Position numbers and translations under genes: made by a program. This document shows, one piece after another, positions 4,848 to 57,186 of a stretch of 64,000 bases of DNA (position 1 is its first letter; each line of letters begins with the position of its first letter). The notes under the pieces were generated by a model. That model made no database searches. It was not told the DNA's origin and saw only the letters and a list, made by a program, of their open reading frames with translations. Location: assembly GCA_965649295.1 (NCBI GenBank), contig CBFGKH010000001.1, forward strand, positions 32,001 through 96,000, read 5' to 3'. The DNA is from a candidate division WOR-3 bacterium. Lineage in GTDB: Bacteria; Hydrothermota; Tepidihabitantia; Tepidihabitantales; Tepidihabitantaceae.

Positions 4848-7229
4848 TCACCAAAGCAGGTCAAGCTGCAGACTAATGTCGTAAGAGTTCTGACGGGAAA
4901 CAAAATCACGTACCGTCTCAGCGTTGCCTCGATAGTGCAGACCGCTAACGCTACCAAGCCCGGTGTGCGGAAAATCAGCCACCTTGTGTCTAAACTTGAA
5001 GTAGAACAGCAGGTTGTCGGATATGCGATCGGTGACTGCGGCATACCAGCGAATCCCCTGGCCGTCGAGAAAATCAATGCCTTGGTCCTCGAACGCCCAC
5101 TGCGACATCGAGTTCGTCTGCCAGACCGCAATGCCCAGCTCAGTGTTGAAGTCATCTGAAAAGTTGTGCTCCCATTGCACTGAGACGAAGTCGCCCCACA
5201 TACTAGCATTGTCCCCGTAGCGCATTGTCGGCGTCAACAATACCTTGCCCAGCCTAACCTCACCGGTCAGATAATCCCAATTGCTCAGACTGGTCATCGC
5301 TCGGATTGTGGATTCTAACGTCACCGAACGAGTAGTTCCAGCCACCTTCGGCAGCTCTTTGGCCTGAATCTTCTGTTTGAATCGGAGTCGAACCGGATAG
5401 ACCGGCTGGTACTCAACCTCGCCTTGGAACCGGACATTGTCTGCCCCCCACGCAAGATTACGCCAGATATCTAGGTAGGCGCGCGTGAACGTCACTTGTC
5501 TGCCAACCTGGTATCGGGCATCAAGAAACAGCCCCTGCTCAGCCTTCGGCATTGGAAAGTCCTTCAGAGCAATGAAGGCCGGGTCTATTACCCGATAACT
5601 CTTCTCCAGCGGCGTATCTTCGAACCGCAGCTGCTCACAGAACCCACGATTATAGGGATTGTCATACCCAACGTCGTAGTGACGGAACAATCCTGTCAGC
5701 GTCAGATAGTCGTACTGGGTTCTGGCTTTGACAAGTAATCCCTTCTGCAAACCCGCTGCCGAGTCAATCCGCGGTTTGGCTGCAAGCTCTGCTTCAAGCG
5801 ACACGTTCTCGACCACTGTCCTCAAATCAGCCCCAACAAAGAGTCGATTCATACCGGTGTCGAGCTTGGTGTAGTTAGGGTCATCAAGCGTCTCGGCATC
5901 AGCCGGCACATCCAAGAACCGGGCATCGGATCGGAACGACCGATCGTACCCCACGCCTAGCAGATTCAAGGCAAACCTGGTACCGATGGGTGCAAAGAGG
6001 AGACTACCCAAGTCGAACCGGATACTGCCACCCCAGTCAGTCTCAGTCAAAACATCTTTGTACGATGGGAAGCGCGGCGTTGCCACGATGTAGTAGTTTA
6101 CTAAGGAATCTGGATTGAGGATTGCATCCCGCCGCGTTCGGGAAAAGAAACCAATCAAACCCAGTCGGTCATAACCCACCTCGGTGGCCACCCCGCGCAT
6201 ACCGAAACCTGGATTCTCAGTCAGGTCGCTGAACAGACCCTCAGCCCGGTCATAGGTCCTGGCTCTGAGTTCAGAGTTATTATCCAGAAGCAGACCCTGA
6301 CCAAGCGTTAGCCTGTAATCACCAACGAATAGACGCCGCACCGGTCCGATGTCTTGTAGACTGACGAAACCCTTAATGTCGTCCAATGTCTGCCTCGAGT
6401 ACAGCTTCTGGCCAGCCCAAGCACCCAATCGGATATGGCGTCCTGCCCGCACCCGCAGACGATGACGGATTCCCGCCTTATTGCGCATTCCTGCCACGTA
6501 GGCACTCTCGGCCAAGAGACGTTCCCGGAAGAACGCGGTATCAATTCCTTGGGCTTCCCAGGGAATCGTCGAATCGCGCAACGCCGCCAGCGCCTGAGAG
6601 AACATTGCTAGGTCAGCCTGGGTGTCCCACTTTGGATCGGTCTCATAAGCCACCCGATAATTGCCACCAAACCCCACCAAAGTCGAGTCGGTGTAAGTGA
6701 CGAAGTCGCGCATGTTTCGATAGCCATAGCTTGAAAGGCCGGGGACCTGACCTGCCAGGTCGCGGCGGCCAGAAATTTTGCCCCCGGCTCGGAGGAACTT
6801 TGCCACTGCTACAGCATCGACCAACGAGACCCGGTCAAGCACAAGAAGGTCATCGATTCGGGCCTTGTTGATGTTGATTGGCGAGAGCAGTAAGTCTTGC
6901 CATTCTTCAACTGCCGCAGTTGTCGGCCCATCTTCAGCCGCCAGCCTTCGCTGAATTCGCTGCACTGTGTTCTGACGAAACTCACCCCACTCCCTAGGGG
7001 TCACCATTATTAGCGGCTTTAGTTCTTCGAACTTCTCCGGCGTGATGCCCGGAATCTGCAGCAACTCGTAGATGCTGTTCAACCGGCCATAGGCATCGAT
7101 GCGCTCCCAGATGCGCTCAGCAGTCACCGAATCAACCGGCAGCCTCATTATCTCCTGTCGCGTCGCTTTATTGATATCAAGCTGAGCCGAGTCGCTGTAG
7201 GCCAAGACGAACAGTAATAGGAGCAGCAT
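4848..7229 (-). CDS. Helix-hairpin-helix (ComEA-like) domain outer-membrane protein
   Basis: Signal peptide; two HhH blocks (LDINKATRQEI...ELLQIPGI; ININKARIDDL); C-terminal beta-rich region ending in Trp. Confidence 0.75.
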   Translation of the reverse strand: MLLLLLFVLAYSDSAQLDINKATRQEIMRLPVDSVTAERIWERIDAYGRLNSIYELLQIPGITPEKFEELKPLIMVTPREWGEFRQNTVQRIQRRLAAEDGPTTAAVEEWQDLLLSPININKARIDDLLVLDRVSLVDAVAVAKFLRAGGKISGRRDLAGQVPGLSSYGYRNMRDFVTYTDSTLVGFGGNYRVAYETDPKWDTQADLAMFSQALAALRDSTIPWEAQGIDTAFFRERLLAESAYVAGMRNKAGIRHRLRVRAGRHIRLGAWAGQKLYSRQTLDDIKGFVSLQDIGPVRRLFVGDYRLTLGQGLLLDNNSELRARTYDRAEGLFSDLTENPGFGMRGVATEVGYDRLGLIGFFSRTRRDAILNPDSLVNYYIVATPRFPSYKDVLTETDWGGSIRFDLGSLLFAPIGTRFALNLLGVGYDRSFRSDARFLDVPADAETLDDPNYTKLDTGMNRLFVGADLRTVVENVSLEAELAAKPRIDSAAGLQKGLLVKARTQYDYLTLTGLFRHYDVGYDNPYNRGFCEQLRFEDTPLEKSYRVIDPAFIALKDFPMPKAEQGLFLDARYQVGRQVTFTRAYLDIWRNLAWGADNVRFQGEVEYQPVYPVRLRFKQKIQAKELPKVAGTTRSVTLESTIRAMTSLSNWDYLTGEVRLGKVLLTPTMRYGDNASMWGDFVSVQWEHNFSDDFNTELGIAVWQTNSMSQWAFEDQGIDFLDGQGIRWYAAVTDRISDNLLFYFKFRHKVADFPHTGLGSVSGLHYRGNAETVRDFVSRQNSYDISLQLDLLW

Positions 7230-17809: not shown

Positions 17810-20244
<2,435 letters not shown>

Positions 20245-23860: not shown

Positions 23861-24592
23861 CTACACCAGGGCGTGGGCCCGGAACGAATAGGACCGCTCG
23901 CCGGCAACGATGACGTGGTCAAACACCGGTATGCCGAGTATTCTGCCAGCCTCGACCAAACGTCGCGTCAATCGCAGGTCCTCATCCGACGGCGTCGGAT
24001 CACCGGATGGATGGTTGTGGGTCACAATGATGGCCGCAGCCTTAGCGCGCACTGCCCGTTCAAAGACCTCACGCGGATGGGCAAGCGTCGAATCAAGACT
24101 GCCGACTGAAATCCGCTGGACATGCTTCAAACGACTCCGAGCATCAAGCGCTAGGGCATAGAAACACTCCTTGCCCGGCTCCCGGGCGAGCTGGTTCACC
24201 ACCCGCACTACTGTCTTGTGGTCCGAAGCATCCGCTCCCAGTAGCTCGGTAACGTCTGGGCCATTTGGCTCAGACCGGGCAGCGCCCATTCGCTGCGCCA
24301 GTTCGAGCGCAGCCTTGATCTGGCATGCCTTGGCGCGCTTCACGCCTGGCACCTCAGTCAGCTCCTCGACCGAAGCCGCGGCCAGCTCAGCAAGGCTCCC
24401 AAACCTGGCGAGCAACTGCTCGGCCAGCGCCGTCGCTGTCATCCCTTTGGCGCCGACACGCAGCAGAATAGCCAGTAGCTCGTGAGTCTTCAGCTCCTGC
24501 GGTCCAAGCAACACCAGCCGTTCCCGTGGCCGCTCGATTTCCGGCAGGTCCTTGATCGTACGAGAAGCAACAGCTCCGCTCTTTCGACTCAC
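23861..24592 (-). CDS. radC: RadC/JAB domain protein
   Basis: ERPRERL, HhH, HPREVF, HNHPSGDPTPSDED, DHVI. Confidence 0.93.
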   Translation of the reverse strand: MSRKSGAVASRTIKDLPEIERPRERLVLLGPQELKTHELLAILLRVGAKGMTATALAEQLLARFGSLAELAAASVEELTEVPGVKRAKACQIKAALELAQRMGAARSEPNGPDVTELLGADASDHKTVVRVVNQLAREPGKECFYALALDARSRLKHVQRISVGSLDSTLAHPREVFERAVRAKAAAIIVTHNHPSGDPTPSDEDLRLTRRLVEAGRILGIPVFDHVIVAGERSYSFRAHALV

Positions 24593-29229: not shown

Positions 29230-30273
29230 CTAACAAATGCGCGGCAGCTGCTCTCCTTCAAGCATCAGCAGCGGCCGCAGTGACCCGAGTTCGGTAGCGA
29301 GCCATACGCCCTGACGCTCAGCCGTGACTTCACCGATTACCGCTGCCCTACGGCCATACCGATGCCGCCGCAATTCCTGAACCACCTTATCAGCAACGCT
29401 CGCCTTGCAGACCAACACCGCCTTGCCTTCGTTAGCCATATACAGCGGGTCAAGCCCAAGCAGACGGGCAACTCCTCGCACCTCCTTGGCAATCGGAATC
29501 GCCTCCTCCCAGACGACAAAGCCAAGTCCGGTCTGCTGTGCAAACTCACAGAGTGTCGTCGCCAGTCCGCCACGCGTCGGGTCACGCGCCAACCGGACCT
29601 CGTACTTCTTCAGCACCGACAGCAACATCTCGGCAAGCGGCGCGCAGTCGCTCCTCACCCTTGCTCGAAACCGATAGTTGCCACGCGCCAGCCCAACTGC
29701 CGCCTCGTGCTCGCCGATACCGCCGGTCAGAATCACTCTGTCACCCGACCGCACCTGCTCGGCTCCCAGCCGCACACCGGCCACCTGCTCACCGATTCCG
29801 GTCACATTGATGTAAAGCCCTTCGTCGCCGCCGCGCTCGATGACTTTGGTGTCACCAGTTACCACTGTCGCACCGACCAGCCGCGCAGTCCTGCCCAGCG
29901 ACCGACAGACCCGTTCGAGCTCACCAATCGCCAGTCCTTCGCGCAACACGAACCCGACTGCCAGGAATCGTGCGCGCGCACCCATCACCGCCAAGTCATT
30001 CACCGTTCCACAGACTGCTAGTTTTCCAATATCACCACCCGGGAAGAATAGCGGCTGGACTACATACGAATCGGTCGAAATGGCAATCGCTCCTGTTCGA
30101 AGTCGTACCCTAGCCGCATCTTCCATTCGCCGCAGTGCCGGCGAGCCAAAGTGCTTCTGAAACACCTGGGCAATCAGCCGGTGCATCTTTCTGCCACCAG
30201 CCCCATGTCCTAGGACAATCCGGTCATCCCTGATTTCACCGACAACAACCGACTGCCAGCTAGTTCCGCTCAT
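29230..30273 (-). CDS. hypE: Hydrogenase maturation protein HypE
   Basis: HGAGG, DSYVV, GTVNDL, DPTRGG, C-terminal PRIC; start moved to ATG 30273. Confidence 0.95.
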   Translation of the reverse strand: MSGTSWQSVVVGEIRDDRIVLGHGAGGRKMHRLIAQVFQKHFGSPALRRMEDAARVRLRTGAIAISTDSYVVQPLFFPGGDIGKLAVCGTVNDLAVMGARARFLAVGFVLREGLAIGELERVCRSLGRTARLVGATVVTGDTKVIERGGDEGLYINVTGIGEQVAGVRLGAEQVRSGDRVILTGGIGEHEAAVGLARGNYRFRARVRSDCAPLAEMLLSVLKKYEVRLARDPTRGGLATTLCEFAQQTGLGFVVWEEAIPIAKEVRGVARLLGLDPLYMANEGKAVLVCKASVADKVVQELRRHRYGRRAAVIGEVTAERQGVWLATELGSLRPLLMLEGEQLPRIC

Positions 30274-31351
30274 ACTTGTAGTACGCTGCACAGGCACCTT
30301 CCGATGATACCATGCACGGACCAAACGGCCGTTCCGGGGTGCAGCGACGCGCAAAGAGACCACAGTCGGTTGGCAGCAGCCTCCCTAGCATCACCTCACC
30401 GCACCGACAGCTGCTCTTCTTTGGTCGGACAGGCCTGACATCAAACCGCTGCCACGCATCGAACTCTGCAAACTCCGCCCGTAAACGCAGTCCCGAATCA
30501 GGAATCGTGCCGATACCACGCCACGACGCAGCACATGGTTCAAACACCTGTGCCATCAACTGGCGAGCAACCTGATTGCCCTCGACACGCACGCTGCGGC
30601 GATACTGCACCGCCACCTCTGGCCCGCTCTGCAACTGTTCAAGCAGTGACAGTATGGCCTGCAGCACATCCAGCGCCTCAAACCCTGCCACGCAACTCGG
30701 CATTCGGTACCTCTCTACAAGAAACCGATAGGGTTCAGAACCAATGATTGTCGAGACATGCCCCGGCAGAATGAATCCATCAATCCGACTTCCTTCATTT
30801 GCAGCAATGTAGTCCAGTGCCGGCGGAATCAACTTGAACATCGTCAGCACCGTGAAGTTGCGCAGACCGGCTTCTTTGGCTGAAACCAGTGCTGCCGCCA
30901 CGGTCGGAATCGTTGTCTCAAAACCGACACCGAGAAAAACAAACTCACCCGGCTCAGCCTTGGCCATTCGGACAGCATCAAGTGGTGAATAGACAACACG
31001 GACATCCGCACCCGCGGCCCGGGCAGTTTCGAGCGAACCACCACTACCCGGCACTCGCAACATATCACCGAAAGTGACAACCTTCACCCCTTCCCTTCTG
31101 GCTAAGCTGACACAGGCGTCAATCTCCTCCTGCGCTGTCACACAAACCGGACATCCTGGTCCGGAAAGCAGCCGCAGCCGATCATCAACTGCCCGCCGGA
31201 TGCCAGAGCTTGATATCGCCATCGTGTGGGTTCCACAAACCTCCATTAGATTGATCTCCGCTCGCTCGCGACATAGTTCGGCAACGATTTGGTTGATGCG
31301 ACGAAGCAAAGCCCTGGCCACCACCGATTCTGAAGCGCTCTGCTTCTTCAT
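30260..31351 (-). CDS. hypD: Hydrogenase maturation protein HypD
   Basis: MEVCGTHT, GPGCPVC, GFETT, PGHVS, CMVSSEGAC. Confidence 0.96.
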   Translation of the reverse strand: MKKQSASESVVARALLRRINQIVAELCRERAEINLMEVCGTHTMAISSSGIRRAVDDRLRLLSGPGCPVCVTAQEEIDACVSLARREGVKVVTFGDMLRVPGSGGSLETARAAGADVRVVYSPLDAVRMAKAEPGEFVFLGVGFETTIPTVAAALVSAKEAGLRNFTVLTMFKLIPPALDYIAANEGSRIDGFILPGHVSTIIGSEPYRFLVERYRMPSCVAGFEALDVLQAILSLLEQLQSGPEVAVQYRRSVRVEGNQVARQLMAQVFEPCAASWRGIGTIPDSGLRLRAEFAEFDAWQRFDVRPVRPKKSSCRCGEVMLGRLLPTDCGLFARRCTPERPFGPCMVSSEGACAAYYKYERN

Positions 31352-31356
31352 AGCTG

Positions 31357-31384
31357 ATTATAGTTGCGGTCTACTCACGGTCAA
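31357..31384 (-). promoter_or_regulatory. Leaderless promoter for hypDE
   Basis: TTGACC-N16-TATAAT-N5-ATG. Confidence 0.7.
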
Positions 31385-31463
31385 CGAACCTGACCGCTGG
31401 CAGTTCCACATCTGACTACCGCCTCCCATACTCAACCGCACAAGCATGGATGTGACTGCCTCG

Positions 31464-31828
31464 TGCACCCCTTTCTAGGTGCAGAACCGAACCGTTCACA
31501 TCGGTTCTAACACTCGGTTCTACAATCTGATAGCCGGATTCTCGTAGTTACCCCTCCCCTGTCTCCGGGGTTGTCGCCGATGCTCCTGCCAAGTCCCTCA
31601 GGCACAAGCCTGGTCAAGGCACTTACCAATAGACCAGCGACTGGACTCAGAACTAAGCCATCGCAGCAGCCCGCGACTGAGCAGGATGACAGCTTCCGCA
31701 GGATGCCTCGGAAACCCCAAGAGACCGGGCTTCGAGAGCTACCCTCGCTTGGGCGCGCAGACGACCCTCACTAGGGCCACGACCGAGCCTTCCCAGTACG
31801 GTCTCGATGCTGGCTTTGCTTGACGCTA
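31464..31828 (-). repeat. Copy A of a dispersed element: ~23 degenerate 12-bp units (31553-31828) plus conserved cassette (31464-31552)
   Basis: On the minus strand position 3 of the 12-mer is a purine in 23/23 units; cassette GCTATCAGATTGTA (31534-31521), TTAG, GGTTCGG, TGCACC-N8-GGTGCA matches copy B without gaps. Confidence 0.8.
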
Positions 31829-31866
31829 CCGGATCCTAATGTCGGAGCGACTGTTCCGCGCCGACA

Positions 31867-32622
31867 CTAGTACTCTCCACGAGTGAAGAAGAAAACCGCA
31901 GCAGCGGTGGCAACAGCACCGAACAGGATCAAGAACCCGATATCGAACCACGGATTGTAGTACCCGAACCCAAGGACGAGTCTGCGAATCAGGTCCACAC
32001 CGTAGGTGAGCGGATTGATGCGAACAAGCAGCCGGAGCCACCACGGCAGATTAGTCGGCGGGAACATCGCTCCGGAAAGAAACCACATCGGCATGATGAT
32101 GAAGTTCATTATTGTGCCGAACCCCTGAAACGATGTCATCCGGGCGGCAATCACGATACCAATTCCGGTGAGCGCAAATGACATCACCATCATCACGCAG
32201 ATGAGCAACGGGATGCTGCCAAAGGCCAATCGAACGTGAACGAACGGCGCCAGCAGCAGGATGATACAGCCCTGAATCAAGGATAGGGTCGTCCCGGCGA
32301 GACCCTTGCCGATGACGATTGATGTCCGTGGCACCGGTGCCACAAGTATCTCCTTCAAGAAGCCAAACTCGCGATCCCAGATGATACTGATTGCCGACTG
32401 GATGGAGGTGAATATCGAGGTCATAGCGATAATACCGGGAAAGATGAACTGCGTGTAGTTGACGCTGCCAATCTGGCTATACGAGCCGCGCAGCCCCATT
32501 CCCAGAATGAAGAGCCAAAGTACCGGTCTGGTGATTGAGCCATAGAGCTGACTGCGCTCCCGGAAGTAACGGATGATATCTCGCTGCCAGACCATTTGGA
32601 TGCAGGCAAGGTCAAACACCAT
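31867..32622 (-). CDS. ABC-2 type exporter permease (DrrB-like)
   Basis: Six TM segments, DREFGFLKEILVAP, NPLTYGVD. Confidence 0.88.
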   Translation of the reverse strand: MVFDLACIQMVWQRDIIRYFRERSQLYGSITRPVLWLFILGMGLRGSYSQIGSVNYTQFIFPGIIAMTSIFTSIQSAISIIWDREFGFLKEILVAPVPRTSIVIGKGLAGTTLSLIQGCIILLLAPFVHVRLAFGSIPLLICVMMVMSFALTGIGIVIAARMTSFQGFGTIMNFIIMPMWFLSGAMFPPTNLPWWLRLLVRINPLTYGVDLIRRLVLGFGYYNPWFDIGFLILFGAVATAAAVFFFTRGEY

Positions 32623-34560: not shown

Positions 34561-36915
34561 TCACGGCAGAATGGCTGCTGTCAAGGCAGGCTTCATCCGC
34601 ATCAACGAGGGTCTGTTCGGGCCGAACCGGATAATGAACCCACCGTCGCGTCGAGTATTGATATAATCAATATCGCTGTCGGCGAATCGCTGCTCAAGCC
34701 GGGCCGGAGTTGGATACCGTCCCATGACCACCACGTGCTTCGGTTGCACCAAAAGAAAGAGCGAGTCAGGATTGCCTTTGCGGCTACCGTGATGGGGTGA
34801 CTTGAGCAAGTCAGCCTGGCCGCTACTGCGCCACCATTCGCCTTCCGCATCGCCAGTGAGTAGCATCACAAAGCCAGCGTGCTCCACCCGCGCGACCAAC
34901 GAGACACTGTTGGTCGGCAGCAACCCTGCCTCGTAGAGACCAACATCAGCTGGCTGTGGTGCAACGAACCGTACCGAGAAACCGAATCCACAGAGGCTGT
35001 CTCCAGCCCGGACCGCTTCAATAACGGTACCCTGCGCTCGTAATCGCGCAAGCAACTGGTCGTAGCCTGAATCACGACTGAAGAGCGTCGGCACGAGCAG
35101 CCGCTCAATCTTCACTCGTTCCGGCAGGTCCAGCAGCCCGCCATAATGGTCGCGGTCTGGATGGGTGACAACAGCCGCGGCGATGCGATGCACACCTCGG
35201 CTGCGCAGGAAGTCGCGCAAGATACCCGGCCCGTCAATACCAGCATCGAAGAGAACACATCTACCCAGGCTATCTGACAAGATCACGGCGTCGCCCCTGT
35301 CTGGATCAAGAAAGACGGCTTCGGTTACAGGCCGGCGCAAGCTATAGCTCCAAAGACCAAACCCGACACCGATGGCAACCAGCAGAAGGAAGAGCCGCCG
35401 TGCCCAGCGGCGCTGCCAGCCAAGCAAGAGCAGCACTGTTGCGTAACACCACAATACCCAAGGCCAGGCAAGCCTGCCCGGTTCCCAGATTGCCCAGTCC
35501 ATTCGACCAAGAACCGTGCCAAGCTTCAATACGAACCAAAGCACAAGCCACAGCGACTGGGCGACAATTCCGGCCAGCCCGGCCCAGATTGCCCGCGCGA
35601 CCAGCACCAGCAAGCCCAGCGGCACTGCTAGACCAACAAGCACCGACACAAGAAAGGTAGAAAGAAACGCCAGCGGCTGCACCCGATAGAAGTGATGTAG
35701 CAGCAGCGGCGCGGTAACTACAGTCGCTGTCATTGAAACACCCATTGGCAGCCAGATGTAACGCTTCAACCAGCGCCCGAATCCTGCCTCGACCTGAATC
35801 CGGCCCAGACGTTCCGAGGCGATAACTATTCCTGCAGTCGCTACAAAAGAAAGCTGTGCGCCCACATCGAATAACGACAGTGGGTCTATGAGCAACAGGA
35901 CTATTCCGACCGAACAGAGTGTCGCCAAGGTCGAAACGCGGCGTTGAAGCTGCATCCCTAACAGCCAGAGCATTGCCATCAGTCCGGCCCGAGCCGGTGC
36001 TGCTGACCAGCCGCAGAGCGATACATACAGCACGACGACCGCCAAGGTTATCCCGAACCTCCACCAGCCTCTGATGCCGGCCACTGCTAGTAGAGTCCAG
36101 ACTACACCGATGACGATGGCGACGTTCATACCCGAAACCGCCAGGATGTGCAAAATCCCGGCATCAGTGAACGCAATCCTGGTCTCCTCGGGCAACCCGG
36201 CACTACCGCCGAGTAGCAATCCGTTCATAAGACCGGCTTCTGCCGGCGGCAGATACCGAGCAAAGGTCGCCCGAATGAAACGGCCAAGAGGCATGACTAC
36301 CAGCCGCAGCCAGACTGAGCCGCGATTGCAGCCAATCACTGCTACTTGGCTAGCGCTAGCATTCGTTGTGCCAACAAATCCCTGGCGCTGATAGTACTCG
36401 TTTCTGTCCGGTAGCCCAGGGTTACGCGGATAGTCAAGTGGCCTTACTCTGGCACTAATTCGTACCATGTCACCATACTTCAGCGCTAGCGAGTCTTGAG
36501 ACCAGACGCGCACCTTCCCATGCCAGGGGCGGTCAAGACTGACAACTACTGCCCAATAGTCAGCACCAGCCGGCTCCTCAACTACCACGCCGACGAAACT
36601 TGAGGCTGCATAGAGACTTGGGTCAACTGTCACTGGTTTGCGGAAACCAACATAGAGCGCACCGGCAGCAAGCACAGCAAGATACAGCGATAGCCCACGC
36701 GTCACAAGTGTGCCTGCCAGCGCAACAAACGCCACCAAAGCAGGAACCCACCACGGCAGCGGCAAGGCACGTCCAATAGCAATCCCGGTCGCCAGTGCCA
36801 GAAGCACTCGCGCGGCCGCATGACGTAGGCCAAGCCTTGCCTCGGACAGACCAAACATGGCATCGAGCCTAGACCCAGCAGACGAACAGTCAAGCAGTTG
36901 CGGCCAATGTCGCAC
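34561..36915 (-). CDS. comEC: ComEC/Rec2 DNA internalisation channel
   Basis: OB region, HILAVSGMN, GAQLSF, metallo-beta-lactamase domain THPDRDH, LTGD, PHHGS. Confidence 0.9.
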   Translation of the reverse strand: MRHWPQLLDCSSAGSRLDAMFGLSEARLGLRHAAARVLLALATGIAIGRALPLPWWVPALVAFVALAGTLVTRGLSLYLAVLAAGALYVGFRKPVTVDPSLYAASSFVGVVVEEPAGADYWAVVVSLDRPWHGKVRVWSQDSLALKYGDMVRISARVRPLDYPRNPGLPDRNEYYQRQGFVGTTNASASQVAVIGCNRGSVWLRLVVMPLGRFIRATFARYLPPAEAGLMNGLLLGGSAGLPEETRIAFTDAGILHILAVSGMNVAIVIGVVWTLLAVAGIRGWWRFGITLAVVVLYVSLCGWSAAPARAGLMAMLWLLGMQLQRRVSTLATLCSVGIVLLLIDPLSLFDVGAQLSFVATAGIVIASERLGRIQVEAGFGRWLKRYIWLPMGVSMTATVVTAPLLLHHFYRVQPLAFLSTFLVSVLVGLAVPLGLLVLVARAIWAGLAGIVAQSLWLVLWFVLKLGTVLGRMDWAIWEPGRLAWPWVLWCYATVLLLLGWQRRWARRLFLLLVAIGVGFGLWSYSLRRPVTEAVFLDPDRGDAVILSDSLGRCVLFDAGIDGPGILRDFLRSRGVHRIAAAVVTHPDRDHYGGLLDLPERVKIERLLVPTLFSRDSGYDQLLARLRAQGTVIEAVRAGDSLCGFGFSVRFVAPQPADVGLYEAGLLPTNSVSLVARVEHAGFVMLLTGDAEGEWWRSSGQADLLKSPHHGSRKGNPDSLFLLVQPKHVVVMGRYPTPARLEQRFADSDIDYINTRRDGGFIIRFGPNRPSLMRMKPALTAAILP

Positions 36916-45878: not shown

Positions 45879-47735
45879 TTGACCCATTCTTCCTCTCGTA
45901 CTGATATTTTCGTTGCTGCCGGCTGCGGCCTGGTTGCGCTGGTCAACTACTTAGCAACCCTTGGCCCAACTGTCGGGCCTGGCGACGCCGGCGAACTGAC
46001 CCTTGCCGCGCTCCGGCTTGGCATCGCCCACCCGCCTGGCTACCCGCTCTTCACCTGGCTTGGCCGGCTTGCCTGCCTACTCCCTTTCCGCGAACCAGCA
46101 GTCGCTACCAACAGCCTGACAGCCCTGATTGGCGCTGCCACTGTCACAGTTCTCTTCCTTGCCGCCCGCCGACTTGGTCTCTCCCTCATCGGCGCTCTGG
46201 TCGCGGCCCTAGCGCTCGGATTCGGCCCAGCCTTCTGGCTCGTGGCAACCAGCCACGAAGTCTATACCCTCACCATTCTCTTTCTCTGTCTCCTTCTTCT
46301 TTCCGTCTCTTTACCCAGTCCTGAACACTCCAACCCCTCGCCGCGGCCGCCCCTGCTTGCGGCCCTGCTGCTCGGCCTCGCCCTCTCTCACCAGCCGACA
46401 ACCCTACTCTGGCTGCCCGCCCTAATCGTTATCGCTTGGCCCTATCGCCGGCTCGTCACGCCCCGCCTCACCCTACTCTTAGCCGGCCTCATGCTCCTCG
46501 GCTTCTCAGCCAGTCTCGGCACCCTCTTTCGCGCCCTGGCCCGACCCGAAATCAACTGGGGCAACCCTAACACCCTTGGCCGGTTCCTTGCCCATGCCTT
46601 TGCTGCCCAATACCGCTGGCTTTCCTTCCGCACTCCTGGCCCTGAGTTCATGGAACGGCTTCGCTCGCTCCCAGCCGACATCGCCACTGGCCTCGGCATC
46701 GTCCCTAGCCTTGTCGCCCTGCTCGGCTTCGTTGTGCTGGCTTTCCGACCTAGTCGTCTGCTCCTCGGTCTTGGTCTCCTCTTCAGCACTGCCCTGTTTG
46801 CCCTTGGCTACTGGATTCCCGACTACCGCTTCCATCTACTGCCTGCCCTGGTTGCTGTTAGCCTCTTTGCCGGCAAAGGTGCCACCTGGCTCGAAACCCG
46901 CATCGCTGCCATTCCCCGGCTAGGCCGTCGCCCCAACCCAAGCCTAGCAAACATCTTCACAGCTCTCGCCATCCTCATCCTGCTCGCCATTCCCGGCCAC
47001 ACCCTTCTCGCCTACCGCCGCATCACGAACGAAAACAAAACAACGATTGTCCGCGACCTTGGCGAGAACCTGCTCTACTCCTTGCCTGACAGTGCTATTC
47101 TGCTCTACGGCGGCGACCTTGCCGGCAATGCAATTCGCTACCTACAGCAAGTGCGCGGCATCCGTCCTGATGTCCAGACCATCGCTGTTGCTCGCCTCCT
47201 TGCCCAGGAGTACTACGACAGCCTAAGGTTTCTCGCCCCGCTCCCTGACTGGCGCGCCACCCTTGCCTCCTCCGCGGCCACCGACCAGAACAGCCTGCTC
47301 CGGACTGTCTTCACTGCTCTTACCCAGGCCCTGCTCCTGCACCGTCCCTGCTACCTCACCGTCGAGATTGTCACCGACATGTTCTTTCCCAGTCCTCTCT
47401 ATCAGTCCCATCTGGTCGTACCCGAAGGCATCGTCTATCGCCTCATTCCCCGTCAGGTGACAGTCAATCTGCCCGCTGTCATTGACCACAGCCGCCACCT
47501 CTGGGCCGGCTACCGCCTCACCTCACTCCATTACCCGTTCACCTCTCCCGACTACCAGCACATCCAGTTCACTTATGCTGCTGCCCGCAACAACTTCGCC
47601 ATGTTCCTCCACGAACATGGCCAGACCGCTGCCGCCATCGAACAACTCCACCTTGCCCTAAGTCTGCCTGCTCCGCCTGAACTTACCCGCCTGGTCCAGG
47701 ACAACCTTCGCCGCCTCCAGCCCGACCGCAATTGA
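45879..47735 (+). CDS. DUF2723/TMEM260-like GT-C membrane glycosyltransferase
   Basis: GDAGEL...GIAHPPGYP, EVY, many TMs, C-terminal TPR; promoter TTGACT-N16-TAGATT at 45841-45868. Confidence 0.82.
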   Translation: MTHSSSRTDIFVAAGCGLVALVNYLATLGPTVGPGDAGELTLAALRLGIAHPPGYPLFTWLGRLACLLPFREPAVATNSLTALIGAATVTVLFLAARRLGLSLIGALVAALALGFGPAFWLVATSHEVYTLTILFLCLLLLSVSLPSPEHSNPSPRPPLLAALLLGLALSHQPTTLLWLPALIVIAWPYRRLVTPRLTLLLAGLMLLGFSASLGTLFRALARPEINWGNPNTLGRFLAHAFAAQYRWLSFRTPGPEFMERLRSLPADIATGLGIVPSLVALLGFVVLAFRPSRLLLGLGLLFSTALFALGYWIPDYRFHLLPALVAVSLFAGKGATWLETRIAAIPRLGRRPNPSLANIFTALAILILLAIPGHTLLAYRRITNENKTTIVRDLGENLLYSLPDSAILLYGGDLAGNAIRYLQQVRGIRPDVQTIAVARLLAQEYYDSLRFLAPLPDWRATLASSAATDQNSLLRTVFTALTQALLLHRPCYLTVEIVTDMFFPSPLYQSHLVVPEGIVYRLIPRQVTVNLPAVIDHSRHLWAGYRLTSLHYPFTSPDYQHIQFTYAAARNNFAMFLHEHGQTAAAIEQLHLALSLPAPPELTRLVQDNLRRLQPDRN

Positions 47736-47759
47736 CGGCAGCCTGCCGAACTGTATGAT
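47732..47759 (+). promoter_or_regulatory. Leaderless promoter for fabH
   Basis: TTGACG-N16-TATGAT-N7-GTG. Confidence 0.6.
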
Positions 47760-47766
47760 AGATTCA

Positions 47767-48813
47767 GTGAGTGAACTTTCTTTGTTGGCCGACCTGCCCC
47801 AGACCGTCTCTGTCGAAGCCAAACCCCGCCTCTACTCGGCAGTAGTTGCCGGCACCGGCTTTGACGTGCCCGAAAAAATAATGACCAACGCCGACCTCGA
47901 AAAGCTCGTTGACACTTCCGACGAGTGGATAGTCGAGCGCACCGGCATGAAAGAACGTCGTATTGCCCGGCCTGACCAGGCCGCATCCGACTTTGCCCTG
48001 GCAGCCTGCCAGCGTGCGCTTGCCGATGCCAACACCCGGCCTGACGAGATTGACCTGATTATCGTTGCCACTGTCACCGGCGACATGGCCTTTCCCTCCA
48101 CTGCCTGCATCCTGCAGGACAAGCTCGGCTGCACCCACGCTGCAGCAATGGACCTAAGTGCCGGCTGCACTGGCTTCATCTACGCCCTTGCCACTGCCCG
48201 CCAATTCATCGCCACCGGCACCTACAAAACCATCCTCGTCGTCGGCGTCGAAGTCCTCTCTAAGATTACCGACTGGACCGACCGCGGCACTTGTGTCCTC
48301 CTCGCTGACGGCGCCGGCGCCGCAGTCCTGCGCGCCACTGACGAACCCGGCCGTGGCATCATCGCTACCTACCTTGGTGCCGACGGTTCGCGTGGCAACG
48401 ACCTCTATATGCCGGCTGGCGGCTCCCGCATTCCCGCTTCCCACGAATCAGTCGCTGCCCGCCAGCACTACCTCAAAATGAACGGCAATGCCATCTTCAA
48501 AGTCGCAGTCCGAGCCATGGCCGACTCGGTTCGCCGCGTTCTCGAACAAGCTCGACTCAAAGCCAGCGACGTCAAGCTCCTCATTCCCCACCAGGCCAAC
48601 CTGCGGATAATCGAAGCCGTGGCCAAACTACTCCGTTTCCCGATGGACAACGTCTTCGTCAACATCCAGAAATACGCCAACACCAGCTCGGCCACCACCA
48701 TCATCGCCCTTGACGAAGCCCGCAAGGCCGGCCGGATTCTGCCCGGCGACCTTGTCGTTCTCGTTGCCTTCGGCGCCGGTCTCACTTGGGGCGGCGTCGC
48801 CATTCGCTGGTAA
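47767..48813 (+). CDS. fabH: Beta-ketoacyl-ACP synthase III
   Basis: DTSDEWI, AGCTGF, PHQAN, NTSSA, GAGLTWG; start moved to GTG 47767. Confidence 0.95.
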   Translation: MSELSLLADLPQTVSVEAKPRLYSAVVAGTGFDVPEKIMTNADLEKLVDTSDEWIVERTGMKERRIARPDQAASDFALAACQRALADANTRPDEIDLIIVATVTGDMAFPSTACILQDKLGCTHAAAMDLSAGCTGFIYALATARQFIATGTYKTILVVGVEVLSKITDWTDRGTCVLLADGAGAAVLRATDEPGRGIIATYLGADGSRGNDLYMPAGGSRIPASHESVAARQHYLKMNGNAIFKVAVRAMADSVRRVLEQARLKASDVKLLIPHQANLRIIEAVAKLLRFPMDNVFVNIQKYANTSSATTIIALDEARKAGRILPGDLVVLVAFGAGLTWGGVAIRW

Positions 48814-49181
48814 ACCCACCCCAAAGCCCAGTCGCCAACCCTTTCCTGAGCAGCGACCAGAACAGCGTCTAAGACCTGCCCAGCTAGCCACCACCAAAGA
48901 GCCCACAAGGCTCAGCCACGGGCTTAGCCGAAAATGGTTATCCAGACACAGTCCCCAACCTGATGCGAATCACATCAGCAGACATTCCCCAAAACTCCTC
49001 CCCCAAGCCATCAGCAAGCAGCTAGGCCAGCACCAACCCAATGAGCCTTGGCAACACCCGCGCAGACCATCCCGGGGACGAGGGAGGGGGTCTGGTACTC
49101 AGCAAGCTATCAGATTGTAACAAGGCAACTTAGGCACACTTCCCTAGGTTCGGCTCTGCACCCTAGGAAGGGTGCAGAGCC
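48812..49181 (+). repeat. Copy B of the dispersed element: 23 degenerate 12-bp units (48812-49087) plus conserved cassette (49088-49181)
   Basis: Purine at unit position 2 in 22/23 and position 3 in 21/23, C at position 4 in 18/23; GCTATCAGATTGTA 49106-49119; perfect 13-bp hairpin 49152-49181. Confidence 0.8.
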
Positions 49182-49207
49182 TGACTCCCCATCGCCCAAC
49201 TAGTTGC

Positions 49208-49400
49208 GGCGATTCCTCGCTACACTCGGGATGACAGAAAGCCCGTCATTCCGAGGCCGCGATGCGGCCGAGGAATCGCCGACCCGTCATCTCTGCCCAG
49301 CGACTCCTCGTCGCCAGACTCCTCGGAATGACACCGCTGCTGGCGAAGGACAGCAGAAGACCCTTCGACTCCGGCCCTATGGCCTTCGCTCAGGGTGACA
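49208..49400. repeat. Cluster of four REP-like palindromic units (GTCATYCYGAG...GAGGAATC type)
   Basis: Units 49211-49236, 49245-49277, 49302-49333, 49359-49400; the first two are an inverted pair. Confidence 0.75.
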
Positions 49401-49442
49401 AGAAGGCACGATTCCGCTCGAACTGACCCTAGCCAAGACGAA

Positions 49443-49470
49443 CCGGCGGCAGGCACAAACCTGCCGCCGG
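49443..49470. terminator. Rho-independent terminator-like hairpin, probably bidirectional
   Basis: CCGGCGGCAGG-CACAAA-CCTGCCGCCGG perfect 11-bp stem, ATTTTCTT on the plus side, 20 bp from the stop at 49490. Confidence 0.75.
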
Positions 49471-49489
49471 ATTTTCTTCCGCTTGTCGC

Positions 49490-52400
49490 TTAGTGCTTGA
49501 GTATCAGCTTGCGCGTGGCCGTAAAGGTTCCCGACACCATTCTGACATAGTAGATGCCCTCAGGCAGCATCCGCTCGCGCCAGTCACGGCCATTCCAATC
49601 AACCTGGTGGCGACCAGCAGGCAACGGCCCCGAGACCAACGTCCGAACCGCGTTACCAGCCGCGTCGAAGACTGTTATTTCAAGCATCGCCGGCGTCGGC
49701 AGCGCAAAGCTGATGGTCACCCTCTGGCTGAACGGCGTTGGCCGAGCACTTTCGAGTGCAAGGCGACCAGGCAATCCTGCCGGCCGGTCAGCCAAACCCT
49801 GCGGCGGCAGAACTGTGACCTCGTTGTAGGCAGTGTCGTTGGCCGGGTCGACATCACCGACAAGCGCGCTGTAGCAGGTAACCGGCAGCGTACCAACCGG
49901 CCCGGCTGTCCAGCGCGGGAATCGAATCGTGTCCTCGGCCCGAGGCTCAAGCCGGTGGGTCGTGTCGGCGCGGTAGGAAGTGCCAATCAGGAATGTTACC
50001 GGCACCCCTTCGCTGAAGCTCGTGTAGTTGCGCAGCACGGCAACCGGCGTCACCTGTTGGCCCGAGTCAATTCGACCGGTTGGCGCGATGATGGCCGTGA
50101 TGCCAACGTCGTGGATCACGCGCTGGACTGTCACCTGCGCCCGGGCAGTGTCGTTGGCTGGGTTGGCGTCGCCCAGTAGCCGGGTGAAGCAAGTTATCGG
50201 ATGGGTGCCAACCGGACTGGCAACCCACTGCCGGAAGGTGACAATGGCTGAGTCGTTGCCAGCGACCGCTACTGCTGTGTCAGCAATGTAGTAGGGCCCG
50301 ATGATGAATCGCACCGGCACAACCTCAGGTTGCTGGGTGTAGTTGCGGACAACTGCCCGCGGCTGGATTACGGCACCGGAGTCAATAGTACCCACCGGCT
50401 GCAGAACACGGCTAACACCAACATCATGCGGCGCCGGCCGAACCATGCACTCAGCATAGGCAGTGTCGTTGCGCGGGTCGGCGTCGCCGTCAATGCTGAC
50501 CCAGGCCGTGACGTACATCAACCCCACGCTATCGGCGGTCCAATCGGGCAAGGCAACAACCGAATCCCGCCCCGGGGCCAGCCTGACTTCTACTGCCTCA
50601 TCGTAGAGTAGCACGTCCCGCGACTGCGTCTTCTCTTCCAGACCTTTTCCGGTCTTCTCTGCCCAGGCCTCGATTATCATACGCAGCACAAACGGCTCGC
50701 TGGTGTTGCCGTAGTTCGTTACCTGAACCAGTGGCGTGACGGTTGCTCCGGAATCAATGTCGCCAACCGGTGCCTCAATCTGCCTTGCGGCAACATCGAG
50801 ATAGCGAATGATAACGGTCTGCAGCAGAGTATCGTTAGCTGGGTTGGCATCGCCTTCGAGCCTTATCCAGGCAGTGGCCAGCAGCACTTGCGGGTCACGG
50901 GCAAACCAGTTAGTGAAAGTTGCGACCGCCGAGTCGCCGGGTTGAATCACACCCGGGTCAGCCACGTCGCTGTAGCCATCGCTGATGGTCAGAAAGACTC
51001 GCGGCTGCGAGGCAACCGAGCCGTAGTTGCGCAATACAATCTGCGGCTGAATCCGGTCGCCGGGGTTGACGATGCTCTCTGGCGCAATGAACCTGGTGAC
51101 GCCGACATCAATTCCGGTCTGCCGGGCATAGACGGTGGCAGTGGCCCGGTCATTGGCCGGCACCAGGTCACCGCTCAGCATTGTCGAGCATGAAACCGCA
51201 TACTGACCGATGCCAGGCGGTGTCCAGGGCGTGGCCGAGATGAGGAGGCTCTCGCCCGGCGCCAGCGTAATGTTGTTGACCGTGACGTTGTAGCCAGCGC
51301 CAATTCGGAAGCGGGCAGCAAAGACCTGGGTTGGTGAGCCGAAGTTACGCACCCAGGCCTGCGGAATGATGACCGTGTCCACCGGCACCGTGTCGCGCGG
51401 CGCAACAATTCGCAGGCAGCCGACATCACGATAGCTGACAATCACCGAAGTCTCTTTGATGTTGTTGACTGGGTCAGGGTCGCCGGTCGTGACCACACTA
51501 CAACGCGCCACCAGCGTGCCGAACTCAGCAGCAGTCCAGCGCGGGAAGGCAACATGGGCTGTCTCGCCAGCGCGGAGCAGCCCGAGGCTCGTGCTTTCAC
51601 GGTAGAGCGTGCCAATGGTAAAGAAGACCCGATAGAAGGCTGAGTCGGTCCCGATATTGGCAACCCGGCAGCGCGGCGTCGCAGTGTCGCCAAGATTGAA
51701 CGACCCGCGCGGCGCGTAGATGGTGTCGGCCCGAAGATTGCGGTCCACATAGCTGAGCCGTCCCAGCACCAGGCTGGTCCAGCCACCACTGCGGTCAGCC
51801 TGGCCGGCAAAGTAGACAGTATTGGTATCAAGCGCAGCGACCGCTGCTCCCAGCCCACCCAGGCGATCGGGCGAATCGTAACGCACTGCCCAGAGCGTGT
51901 CCTTGTTGCTGCCGACCGGGTCGGTCTCGGTGTAACAGAGCGTCACGAGCACATCACCGACCGTACCGGCAACATAAACCCGCCCGCCCTGATAGGCGAC
52001 CTTGTAGCCATAGGCGTCATCTTCGCCATACACCGCACCAGCCGGACCCCAGCGACTGACGAGTGTACTGGAGAAACGATTCGTGCAGATGATGTCGTTA
52101 TCGTAGCTGAGCATCCCTGTCACATAAACATTGGGCGGATTGGCATTGTCCAGAGCGATGCTCGAAGCGTAGTCGTCGCCGTCATAGCCGCCAATGTTCA
52201 GGCTGCGCCAGTTGAGCAATGTGCCGGCGGAATTGAACCGGGCGACTGCATAGTTGTAGCCCTCGCTGATAATGCCGTCATCGTTGTAGTCAAACCCGCA
52301 GATGTAGATGTCGCCAGATGGAGCCAAGGCCAGGTCAAATGGCACATCAGCGTCGTGGATAATAGTGTTGGGATTGCGGTAGGTGCGACGCCAGAGCGTG

Positions 52401-53176
52401 TCACCGCTGGGCCGCAGTTTCATCGTCCACCATTCGAGGTCGAAGAATCGGTGCAGTCCGAAGCCGGTAACGACGACGTTCGAGTCCAGGCCGACCGCAA
52501 TGGCGGTCGCGCAGTTGTCAAACTCAGCGTAGTCCTGGAAGAACCAGGGATGGACGTCGCGCTGCCTCAGCTTGCTCTCGCGGGCCAGCGTGTCGAGGAC
52601 GTAGCGCCGGGTCCAGATGGTGTCGCCAGTTGCGCAACTAATCTTGAGAATGGTGTAGGCGGAAAGGTTGCGGGTTGAGTCAAACGCAGTACCGGCAATA
52701 TAGGCAACACCGCCCGGCCCCAGTGCAATGTCAAAGGCCGCGTCATCATAAGGCCAGAGCGTCTTCTTGGCCCAGACCTGGTTGCCGATAGTGTCATATT
52801 TCACCCAGGAAATGTCGGCTCCGCGTGGCAGCAGGTTGTAGGTAACGCCAGCAACATAGACATTCCCCTCACTATCAACTGCCAGCGCATGGGCCATGTC
52901 GTCCTGACTGTAAGTGTTACCGCCATAGGACTGCGACCAGCGTAGCTGGCCGTCGAGAGTGTAGCAGGCGGTGAGCATGTTCGTCACAGTCGGCCACTGC
53001 GGCGCTTCGCCCGAACCACAGATGTAGATACGGTTGCGGCCGGCATCAACATACATGTCGGCCGTCATGTTGAACTGGTTTTGACTCTGACCGTCATAGA
53101 GCCGAGTCCAGAGCGTATCAATGGCACCGGCCAAGGCCAGGGCCGGTAACAGAACTACCAGGCGGAGAAATCTCAT
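49490..53176 (-). CDS. Secreted beta-propeller protein with about six CARDB repeats and FlgD-Ig/T9SS-type CTD
   Basis: Signal peptide, SD GGGAGG; GNVYVAG/DTLW propeller repeats; repeated D.NP.ND; WNGRD...GIYYVR...RKLILKH. Confidence 0.8.
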   Translation of the reverse strand: MRFLRLVVLLPALALAGAIDTLWTRLYDGQSQNQFNMTADMYVDAGRNRIYICGSGEAPQWPTVTNMLTACYTLDGQLRWSQSYGGNTYSQDDMAHALAVDSEGNVYVAGVTYNLLPRGADISWVKYDTIGNQVWAKKTLWPYDDAAFDIALGPGGVAYIAGTAFDSTRNLSAYTILKISCATGDTIWTRRYVLDTLARESKLRQRDVHPWFFQDYAEFDNCATAIAVGLDSNVVVTGFGLHRFFDLEWWTMKLRPSGDTLWRRTYRNPNTIIHDADVPFDLALAPSGDIYICGFDYNDDGIISEGYNYAVARFNSAGTLLNWRSLNIGGYDGDDYASSIALDNANPPNVYVTGMLSYDNDIICTNRFSSTLVSRWGPAGAVYGEDDAYGYKVAYQGGRVYVAGTVGDVLVTLCYTETDPVGSNKDTLWAVRYDSPDRLGGLGAAVAALDTNTVYFAGQADRSGGWTSLVLGRLSYVDRNLRADTIYAPRGSFNLGDTATPRCRVANIGTDSAFYRVFFTIGTLYRESTSLGLLRAGETAHVAFPRWTAAEFGTLVARCSVVTTGDPDPVNNIKETSVIVSYRDVGCLRIVAPRDTVPVDTVIIPQAWVRNFGSPTQVFAARFRIGAGYNVTVNNITLAPGESLLISATPWTPPGIGQYAVSCSTMLSGDLVPANDRATATVYARQTGIDVGVTRFIAPESIVNPGDRIQPQIVLRNYGSVASQPRVFLTISDGYSDVADPGVIQPGDSAVATFTNWFARDPQVLLATAWIRLEGDANPANDTLLQTVIIRYLDVAARQIEAPVGDIDSGATVTPLVQVTNYGNTSEPFVLRMIIEAWAEKTGKGLEEKTQSRDVLLYDEAVEVRLAPGRDSVVALPDWTADSVGLMYVTAWVSIDGDADPRNDTAYAECMVRPAPHDVGVSRVLQPVGTIDSGAVIQPRAVVRNYTQQPEVVPVRFIIGPYYIADTAVAVAGNDSAIVTFRQWVASPVGTHPITCFTRLLGDANPANDTARAQVTVQRVIHDVGITAIIAPTGRIDSGQQVTPVAVLRNYTSFSEGVPVTFLIGTSYRADTTHRLEPRAEDTIRFPRWTAGPVGTLPVTCYSALVGDVDPANDTAYNEVTVLPPQGLADRPAGLPGRLALESARPTPFSQRVTISFALPTPAMLEITVFDAAGNAVRTLVSGPLPAGRHQVDWNGRDWRERMLPEGIYYVRMVSGTFTATRKLILKH

Positions 53177-55305: not shown

Positions 55306-56139
55306 ATGCGGCCGAGCCGCACGACAACCCAGCGACTCATCCGCCTGGCTCTTGCCGAAGACCTGGGTGCTGGCGACATCACCTCTCGCCTAACAGTCCC
55401 AGCCAGCCAGCAGGCCCGCGCCGTTATCGTCGCTCGCACCGCCGGCGTCCTTGCCGGTATCAACGTCTGCCGCGACGTCTTTCGGGCCGTTGACCGTCAC
55501 ATTCGCTTCACCCCCCTGCTGCGTGACGGCCAGCACTTTTCTGATGGCGACACTATTGCCCGTGTATCCGGCAAAGCCCGCTCCTTGCTCGCGGCTGAAC
55601 GCACCGCGCTCAATTTTCTTCAACACCTCTCGGGCATCGCCACTCTCACCAGTCGCTTTGTCGCCGCCGTCAACGGCACCAAAGCGCGAATCCTCGATAC
55701 CCGCAAGACCATTCCCGGCTGGCGCGAATTGGCAAAATACGCAGTTCGCTGCGGCGGCGGCACCAATCACCGTCGCGGCCTCGACGATATGATTCTCATC
55801 AAGGACAATCACATCGCCGCTGCCGGCTCGATTACCGCTGCCTTGGCTCGCTGTCAGGGCACCAGCCTGCCGATTGAAGTCGAAGCCCAGAACCTGGCTC
55901 AGGTCCGTGAAGCCCTGGCTGCTGGGGCGACACGTATCCTGCTTGACAACATGACTCTTGCCCAGTTACGTCGGGCAGTGGAGCTAGTTCGCGGCCAGGC
56001 CCAACTCGAAGCCTCAGGAGGCATCAACCTGAAACGGGTTCGGCTCGTGGCCCAGACCGGTGTTGACTTTATCTCGGTCGGCGCCATCACCCACTCAGCG
56101 CCGGCCGCTGACATCGCGCTAGACTTCCTTCGCGAATAG
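55306..56139 (+). CDS. nadC: Nicotinate-nucleotide pyrophosphorylase (carboxylating)
   Basis: ED..GDITS, DTRKT, HR.GL.D, KDNH, LLDN, EASGG; start moved to ATG 55306. Confidence 0.95.
   Translation: MRPSRTTTQRLIRLALAEDLGAGDITSRLTVPASQQARAVIVARTAGVLAGINVCRDVFRAVDRHIRFTPLLRDGQHFSDGDTIARVSGKARSLLAAERTALNFLQHLSGIATLTSRFVAAVNGTKARILDTRKTIPGWRELAKYAVRCGGGTNHRRGLDDMILIKDNHIAAAGSITAALARCQGTSLPIEVEAQNLAQVREALAAGATRILLDNMTLAQLRRAVELVRGQAQLEASGGINLKRVRLVAQTGVDFISVGAITHSAPAADIALDFLRE

Positions 56140-57185: not shown

Positions 57186-57186
<1 letters not shown>
56119..57186 (-). CDS. dprA: DNA processing protein DprA
   Basis: VVGTR, SGLARGAD, FPKRNRIVSG, C-terminal winged helix. Confidence 0.94.

Follow-up and report, generated by a model that had tools for sequence, protein, structure and literature searches.

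What keeps a 12-base beat in place where hardly any single base is kept? The question is raised by two segments of the window, by which we mean the whole 64-kb stretch of DNA that was analysed. The segments are copies of a non-coding module of about 380 bases, which occurs twice in the window and consists of a core of about 100 bases joined to 23 units in fixed register. The copies, A and B, and the signals around them are the following:

31553-31828, minus strand: array A, 23 degenerate 12-base units with the kept motif purine-purine-notA at unit positions 2-4
31464-31552, minus strand: core A, delimited by alignment to copy B, exact matches and nhmmer (E 9e-48)
48812-49087, plus strand: array B, 23 units in the same register as array A
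49088-49181, plus strand: core B, delimited by alignment to copy A, exact matches and nhmmer (E 6e-51)
31840-31866, minus strand: hairpin after the ABC-2 permease stop codon, the first 27 bases of the predicted fold, between the permease gene and array A
31357-31384, minus strand: sigma-70-type promoter-like site for hypD with 11/12 matches, about 80 bases beyond core A; context, outside the module
49443-49478, plus strand: GC-rich terminator-like hairpin with T run, about 260 bases beyond core B

Layout of the modules and the 12-base beat

Module A lies in a gap of 515 bases (31352-31866). The genes on either side are both on the minus strand: hypD (30260-31351), and the ABC-2 permease gene (31867-32622), which is the final gene of a ComEC-EamA-ABC operon. 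The gap of 676 bases that holds module B separates fabH (47755-48813, plus) from a convergent gene (49490-53176), which encodes a secreted protein of 1228 amino acids. Both arrays are co-oriented with the upstream operon and begin close to its stop codon, at a distance of 38 bases in copy A and of 0 bases in copy B, where the outermost unit overlaps the stop codon of fabH. The hairpin at 31840-31866 has 10 bp, lacks a U run and directly follows the ABC-2 permease stop codon; it may mark the 3' end of the operon upstream of array A. The terminator-like hairpin at 49443-49478 would end a plus-strand transcript that crosses array B.

The minus strand of B aligns with the plus strand of A, and the modules are therefore mutually inverted. 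As a pair (31455-31828 and 48812-49190) they form inverted repeats around about 17 kb, with the arrays pointing inward. The genes in between look ordinary (ABC transporter, EamA, ComEC, TPR, ExbB/TonB, a glycosyltransferase-like gene and fabH). No recombinase gene was found among the ORFs scanned, and the GC skew is unchanged across the bracketed segment.

The conserved block of about 100 bases that is common to both copies adjoins each array on the core-proximal side. Core A begins with the inverted repeat TGCACC/GGTGCA (31464-31483), which in core B is a perfect 13-bp stem (49152-49164 and 49169-49181), and continues with CCGAACC at 31487-31493. A 14-mer is identical in the two cores (31521-31534 in A, 49106-49119 in B), and occurs without mismatch nowhere else in the window. 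A C-rich block, CCCCTCCC, at 31551-31558 of copy A runs into unit -1, and the conservation between the copies extends beyond the core through units -1 to -6, to about 31624. An nhmmer search of the window with the core profile detected only the two copies, and no third.

The initial annotation had reported that on the minus strand of array A, unit position 3 is a purine in 23/23 units and position 2 in 19/23. These counts are reproduced here, with 17 G and 6 A at position 3. On the plus strand of array B, with the units counted back from the homologous last unit, purines occupy position 3 in 21/23 units and position 2 in 22/23. An A at position 4 is found in none of the 46 units of the two arrays together. 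The information content of the unit is highest at positions 2-4, where it reaches up to 1.17 bits, and is roughly 0.05-0.3 at positions 5-9. Pyrimidines are weakly preferred at positions 9-10 (16/23 and 14/23 in array A, 17/23 and 16/23 in array B), opposite the purines at positions 2-3, which gives the unit a weak pseudo-dyad. The consensus at the remaining positions is faint, and the mean pairwise identity of units amounts to 3.66 of 12 in A and 4.51 in B, compared with 3.19 and 3.46 in shuffles. Outward of array A, from 31829, the pattern is lost, as annotated. It is also correct that the position-3 purines are mainly G in array A (17/23) and mainly A in array B (15/23); the GC skew of the whole window is negative.

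The periodicity is real, and stronger than the initial annotation had stated. Against shuffles, the period-12 purine/pyrimidine power has a z-score of 8.3 in A and 13.2 in B, while the period-3 power (z 0.3 and 1.5) gives no signal. With a sliding segment of 276 bases moved over all 64 kb, the top period-12 peaks are array B (15.8) and array A (13.0), and the next peak is at 5.4. Measured from the invariant 14-mer, the period-12 component has practically the same phase in both arrays (-30.4 degrees in A, -30.6 degrees in B). Run length alone is unexceptional, because a coding region contains, at 19546, a period-12 pyrimidine run that is 24 long; a period of 12 is itself a whole number of codons. 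The hallmark of the arrays is instead period-12 power without period-3 power. Tandem Repeats Finder at a minimum score of 30 called neither array, and a search of the window for repeats with exact seeds did not match the copies to each other.

A third period-12 purine signal lies at 6493-6696 and reaches 5.4 in 276-base and at most 7.2 in 144-base segments. It falls within a 793-amino-acid ORF (4848-7229) and reads as ordinary coding sequence.

Coding potential and divergence of the two copies

The claim that the arrays are non-coding is borne out. Stop codons are about as frequent as in random sequence in each of the six frames of either array (0-4 per frame versus an expected 2.2-2.9), a period-3 signal is lacking, and none of the frames stays open in both copies. 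For strong versus weak bases, the period-3 power is 0.3 in A and 0.7 in B, below the value of 1.0 that marks the 5th percentile in 146 equally long coding segments from the 64-kb window. It is therefore extremely improbable that the arrays are protein-coding or a recent pseudogene, even though one frame of array B is open throughout (0 stops in 92 codons); the matching frame in A has 3 stops. The same applies to two small ORFs at 31507-31629 (minus, 40 amino acids) and 49041-49133 (plus, 30 amino acids), which run from the proximal units into the core, terminate at the same aligned TAG within it, and have short residue blocks in common. Of their 14 conserved residues, 13 are specified by identical codons, so the conservation is at the nucleotide level and not at the protein level. 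A phmmer search with the 40-amino-acid ORF gave 0 matches among 1.84 billion representative proteins, and a word search with a 67-amino-acid plus-strand ORF over array A yielded no candidate.

The divergence between the copies is informative about how the arrays are maintained. The six core-proximal units of A share 7, 5, 7, 6, 9 and 9 of 12 bases with B; for the pairs quoted in the initial annotation, units -1, -2, -4 and -6, the values are 9, 9, 7 and 7. The background is 3.73 +/- 1.68 of 12, and the distal 17 units are at background. Over all 23 units, identity correlates with core proximity (Spearman rho 0.50, p 0.016), and the correlation is lost when the distal 17 units are taken alone (rho -0.14, p 0.59). 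The polar constraint that had been proposed is hence supported as a step, and not as a slope: the conserved core reaches six units into the array, and what lies beyond is a track that keeps the beat only.

In the distal 17 unit pairs, position 3 has 5 identities, 11 transitions and 1 transversion, whereas positions 8, 10 and 12 have 9 or 10 transversions each. At the purine positions, transitions between the copies are thus saturated and transversions nearly absent, and the remaining positions are scrambled. Phase-breaking insertions or deletions occur in neither copy over 276 bases. Since the purines track the local skew and the transitions are saturated, the sequences have had time to equilibrate with the local mutation bias. 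Transversions at the purine positions, an A at position 4 and phase-breaking indels have nevertheless been kept out, which suggests that the beat is under purifying selection.

A main alternative to selection is that the arrays are a relic minisatellite. A functional core would have been duplicated together with an ancestral tandem 12-mer, possibly in 84-base blocks, which would now be in decay, and the beat would have no function. The faint unit consensus beyond positions 2-4 (3.66 and 4.51, against 3.19 and 3.46 in shuffles) would fit such an origin, and an old repeat would likewise not be called by Tandem Repeats Finder. A hint of block duplication is self-similarity at a lag of 84 bases, or 7 units, at which self-identity is higher than at any other lag from 1 to 180 in each array (0.359 in A, 0.448 in B); lag 168 is second-best in array B. 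Permutation of the unit order gives p 0.046 (A) and 0.021 (B) for lag 7, which become 0.36 and 0.16 when corrected for 11 lags, and the arrays are homologous and hence non-independent. A higher order at 84 bases is accordingly suggestive only. Decay, on the other hand, should strike all positions equally, whereas the information sits at positions 2-4 (at most 1.17 bits), transversions at positions 2-3 are nearly absent despite saturated transitions, and phase-breaking indels are found in neither copy. We therefore regard a relic as unlikely, and the beat as probably maintained by purifying selection.

The initial annotation had also considered polarised growth, in which units would be added singly at one end, in a CRISPR-like manner, to a set number. 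The count of 23 units in both arrays and the polar similarity could be taken in its favour. However, units that lie side by side resemble each other no more than randomly paired ones do (permutation p 0.41 in A and 0.27 in B), and nothing therefore points to recent unit-by-unit growth. Acquisition genes are absent among the 44 ORFs scanned, searches for plasmid or phage similarity with both arrays came back empty, and unit -23 of B is just cut off by fabH, which bounds this array. Growth of this kind is thus highly improbable. A set length may underlie the equal count in these two copies, but a single duplication of the whole module, with no change in length afterwards, accounts for it just as well and is the simplest explanation.

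Duplex DNA or transcript

It is less clear whether the beat is read in DNA or in RNA. The position of the arrays makes it natural to consider an element of the 3' untranslated region of the upstream operon (minus strand for A, plus strand for B). The array would then be a track for an RNA-binding factor that steps by about 12 bases, for example Rho, and hairpins would fix the 3' end. No familiar bacterial signal other than the Rho loading site is, to our knowledge, spaced at about 12 bases. Like Rho utilisation (rut) sites, the arrays are untranslated stretches just past a stop codon, at 0 (B) and 38 (A) bases from the last stop codon of a long co-oriented operon, and hairpins and a terminator follow beyond B on the same strand. 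Rho sites are described as about 78 bases long, with more C than G and a C every 11-13 bases (PMC6407284), or as (YC)N9-13 repeats (PMC6144790), a spacing similar to that of the contacts considered here.

The composition of the arrays is harder to reconcile with Rho. In the orientation of the upstream genes, the C/G ratio is 1.86 in array B, which is C-rich as expected for a rut site, but 0.76 in array A, which is G-rich; in the opposite orientation the values are 1.31 for A and 0.54 for B, so that whichever orientation is chosen, one of the two copies has less C than G. The kept bases are purines, whereas the Rho pockets take YC. Starts of YC at unit positions 1-3 number 0, 0 and 0 in A and 0, 0 and 1 in B. 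Where YC does occur in phase, its enrichment is only mild, with at most 6/23 units in A and 11/23 in B for any phase; the arrays have a period of 12, but the phased bases are purines. Their 276 bases correspond to 3.5 times the described length of a Rho site. Given the conserved purines and the C/G ratios, the arrays were not classed as Rho utilisation sites. For other RNA-binding factors, the equivalence of A and G would be unusual in a sequence-specific RNA binder. Altogether, a 3' untranslated region element appears somewhat unlikely, although it is, with the relic, one of the two main rivals of the reading proposed below.

A different transcript would start at the core and cross the array in the outward direction (on the plus strand in copy A, on the minus strand in copy B), with TACAAT, which lies within the 14-mer and is invariant in both copies, as the -10 element. 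Such a non-coding RNA would overlap the adjacent gene in antisense at its 3' end and carry a CCUCC-like 5' block, and the C-rich block could pair with Shine-Dalgarno sequences. A consensus fold (alifold) of the two cores has double changes in 10/29 pairs in the outward orientation, versus 4/25 in the other, and these, if real, would point to RNA. This alifold is built from two sequences only, to which its structure is fitted, and folding each sequence by itself does not give the same stems. The fold z-scores on either strand are unremarkable (-1.0 to -2.2). A promoter scan detected a sigma-70-type site in neither core, as opposed to 23 such sites in the 40 kb scanned, where they are common and several lie just upstream of gene starts. 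The -35 positions differ between the copies, Rfam searches were empty, and a terminator after the array is absent in the outward direction. We consider an outward non-coding RNA distinctly improbable.

On the side of DNA, the constraint on the base class, with a composition free to follow the local skew, fits a duplex reading better than the strand-specific need of an RNA. The weak pseudo-dyad, the inverted repeats of the cores, the unremarkable folds of either strand and the promoter scan, which was negative in both cores, also count towards DNA. With low confidence, the substrate is more likely to be duplex DNA than RNA.

Between core B and the convergent gene lie 300 bases (49185-49485, plus) that are strongly folded in their own right (z -5.35, with 0/100 shuffles as stable). 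They follow array B on its strand, which speaks for RNA. They contain perfect inverted repeats of 13 bp (49207-49219 and 49269-49281) and 12 bp (49245-49256 and 49321-49332) and end in the terminator-like hairpin with its T run. A counterpart beside copy A is absent, and there is no Rfam match. The segment may represent a structured RNA of its own, or else a REP-like element.

Possible function and comparison with known systems

In view of the above, we tentatively propose, as a possibility that we hold well short of probable, that an oligomerising protein uses the module as a platform for phased binding, with duplex DNA as the more likely substrate. The protein, probably a dimer or oligomer, would nucleate on the core and on the six sequence-conserved proximal units. 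It would then polymerise outward and contact the equivalent two or three bases of every 12-base unit, so that the distal units would need to keep only the beat. The duplex could serve as a boundary or as a centromere-like nucleoprotein segment between operons.

The proposal starts from the periodicity, the shared register, the lack of coding, the selective maintenance and the step-like polarity of the arrays. The binding of a protein, its nucleation on the core and the choice of DNA as the substrate are what it would add. It is consistent with the fact that no other period-12 peak in the 64 kb is as high as those of the two arrays, whose phase relative to the 14-mer is identical. The class of purine or pyrimidine is kept rather than the identity of the base, the cores have inverted repeats and the unit has a weak pseudo-dyad. 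The lag of 84 bases, which ranks first in both arrays although its signal is weak, would equal 8.0 turns of 10.5-bp B-DNA, the point at which a 12-bp step regains the same helical face. A less favourable observation is that the arrays are co-oriented and lie right after operon ends, with a terminator beyond B, which fits a 3' untranslated region equally well. There are also only two copies, without relatives found, so that the pattern is unreplicated, and a candidate partner is absent among the 44 ORFs.

The closest precedent for the proposed platform is provided by the parC and tubC centromere arrays. One tubC has a 12-bp iteron step. Such arrays span a few hundred bp, as the modules do, and are made up of short direct repeats that are partly degenerate and include stronger and weaker sites, with a binding protein that spreads over them. 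According to PMC6009700, tubC has 352 bp, with short iterons of high and low affinity and spreading of the binding protein, an analogy that speaks for the binding platform. In contrast to these centromeres, the module is chromosomal and lies between housekeeping operons, and its units keep just three positions. Sequence-conserved iterons, a trait of parC and tubC, are not seen (unit identity 3.66 and 4.51 of 12), and neither a domain of a parC/tubC partner gene among the 44 ORFs nor plasmid or phage similarity was found.

Nucleation followed by a degenerate track, with one base class per subunit step, is also known from DnaA-trios beside DnaA boxes and from a virus assembly origin with a G every third base. 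The step is 3 bases in these systems and 12 bases here, and there is no candidate for a filament-forming partner. BOX and MIRU elements are many-copy mosaic intergenic repeats with longer, sequence-conserved sub-units in variable number. They resemble the modules in being intergenic at operon ends and in joining a conserved module to tandem sub-units, but differ in that only two copies were seen here in 64 kb, and in that the 12-base units are nearly sequence-free.

TIGR arrays have a short period as well, and the unit described here, with 3 kept and 9 variable bases, recalls their 9-base variable segments in an array that ends near a terminator (PMC12045711). TIGR arrays are built of units of about 36 bases in which two conserved repeats of 8-12 bases alternate, and a Nop-domain (Tas) gene lies next to them (PMC12045711). 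Neither conserved repeats nor a 36-base super-period (lag-3 p 0.10 and 0.54) are present in our arrays, and a Nop domain was found in none of the 44 ORFs scanned (at least 150 amino acids). The 14-mer, when read outward (31521-31534 plus, 49106-49119 minus), contains CUGA and then a UGAUAG stretch, letters similar to the guide-RNA boxes D and C that PMC12045711 names. Further box C/D features were not detected, nor was an Rfam C/D match above noise.

Several other candidates were discarded. A CRISPR array was rejected in the absence of conserved 25-36-base repeats, and of cas domains among the 44 ORFs. Known Rfam families were set aside, as covariance models gave nothing beyond weak chance matches: the whole window had 0 matches at the gathering score, and at E up to 10 there were 0 in 31300-31900 and just 7 weak eukaryotic or archaeal chance matches (E 0.7-8.6) in 48780-49520. 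Genes for tRNA or tmRNA were not found. An ECF-sigma or sigma-54 promoter, a tRNA 3'-end remnant, a KOPS-like motif, an integron attC site and a recombinase site were dropped on sequence inspection alone.

Relatives of the module were sought more widely. The initial annotation had named kinship with plasmids or phages as a check, and blastn with 11-base words and both modules as queries gave no match. A scan of genome contigs, in a collection to which the source genome does not belong, used an exact pattern (the 14-mer, 13-19 free bases and a 6-mer) that diverged relatives would escape. The pattern fits both copies in the window, neither of which was among the matches. The scan returned 8 loci, in six Nostoc records, one Acidiferrales and one Pseudobdellovibrionaceae. 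The six Nostoc matches are at one identical position and were taken as one site, and the Acidiferrales site reads as coding sequence. At all 8 loci, the core profile matches the scanned pattern alone (E 0.027-0.25), and the loci were therefore treated as chance. No obvious binding partner is encoded next to or near the modules among the 44 ORFs searched against Pfam, which are 44 of the 64 ORFs of at least 150 amino acids; the other 20, to judge from their coordinates, overlap longer ORFs. A search of the open-access literature on 12-base periodicity or repeats in bacteria found no description of such an element.

It may be that the module is a previously undescribed register-keeping element, in which a protein or ribonucleoprotein filament nucleated on the core would advance in 12-base steps along the purine-purine-notA track, and which would act as a chromosomal boundary or in a centromere-like manner. 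Seven steps (84 bp) of such a filament would regain the same face of B-DNA. In this specific form the idea is a long shot and quite unlikely. In a bolder variant, the nine free bases between the punctuation would be short guide-like segments, of the length of TIGR spacers.

If a protein does read the 12-base beat over 276 bases, the arrays would be a natural nucleic-acid ruler, which fixes register and length and leaves the sequence free. They would then offer a testable handle on extended chromosomal nucleoprotein segments, or on 3' regions that recruit phased RNA-binding machines, here at operon boundaries of an uncultured-type genome that encodes T9SS-like secreted proteins. Such elements escape tandem-repeat finders and Rfam, but are visible as period-12 purine power without period-3 power, and a scan for the two periods can be applied across genomes.

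Some features elsewhere in the window were noted in passing. The GC skew is negative in 60/64 one-kb bins, and since the cumulative skew falls steadily, neither a replication origin nor a terminus lies within the window. Genes linked to DNA uptake are scattered over it (ComEC 34561-36915, DprA 56119-57186, RadC 23861-24592, and a helix-hairpin-helix protein 4848-7229). An extreme plus-strand pyrimidine excess at 46001-47000 (GC skew -0.336, AT skew -0.341) is located inside a TMEM260-like gene, which also contains a period-17 pyrimidine run, 30 long, from 46472. Finally, three direct repeats at 315-base spacing are present at 49829-50551, the second and third with 71% and 60% identity to the first, and probably represent repeated domains in the gene for the 1228-amino-acid secreted protein.
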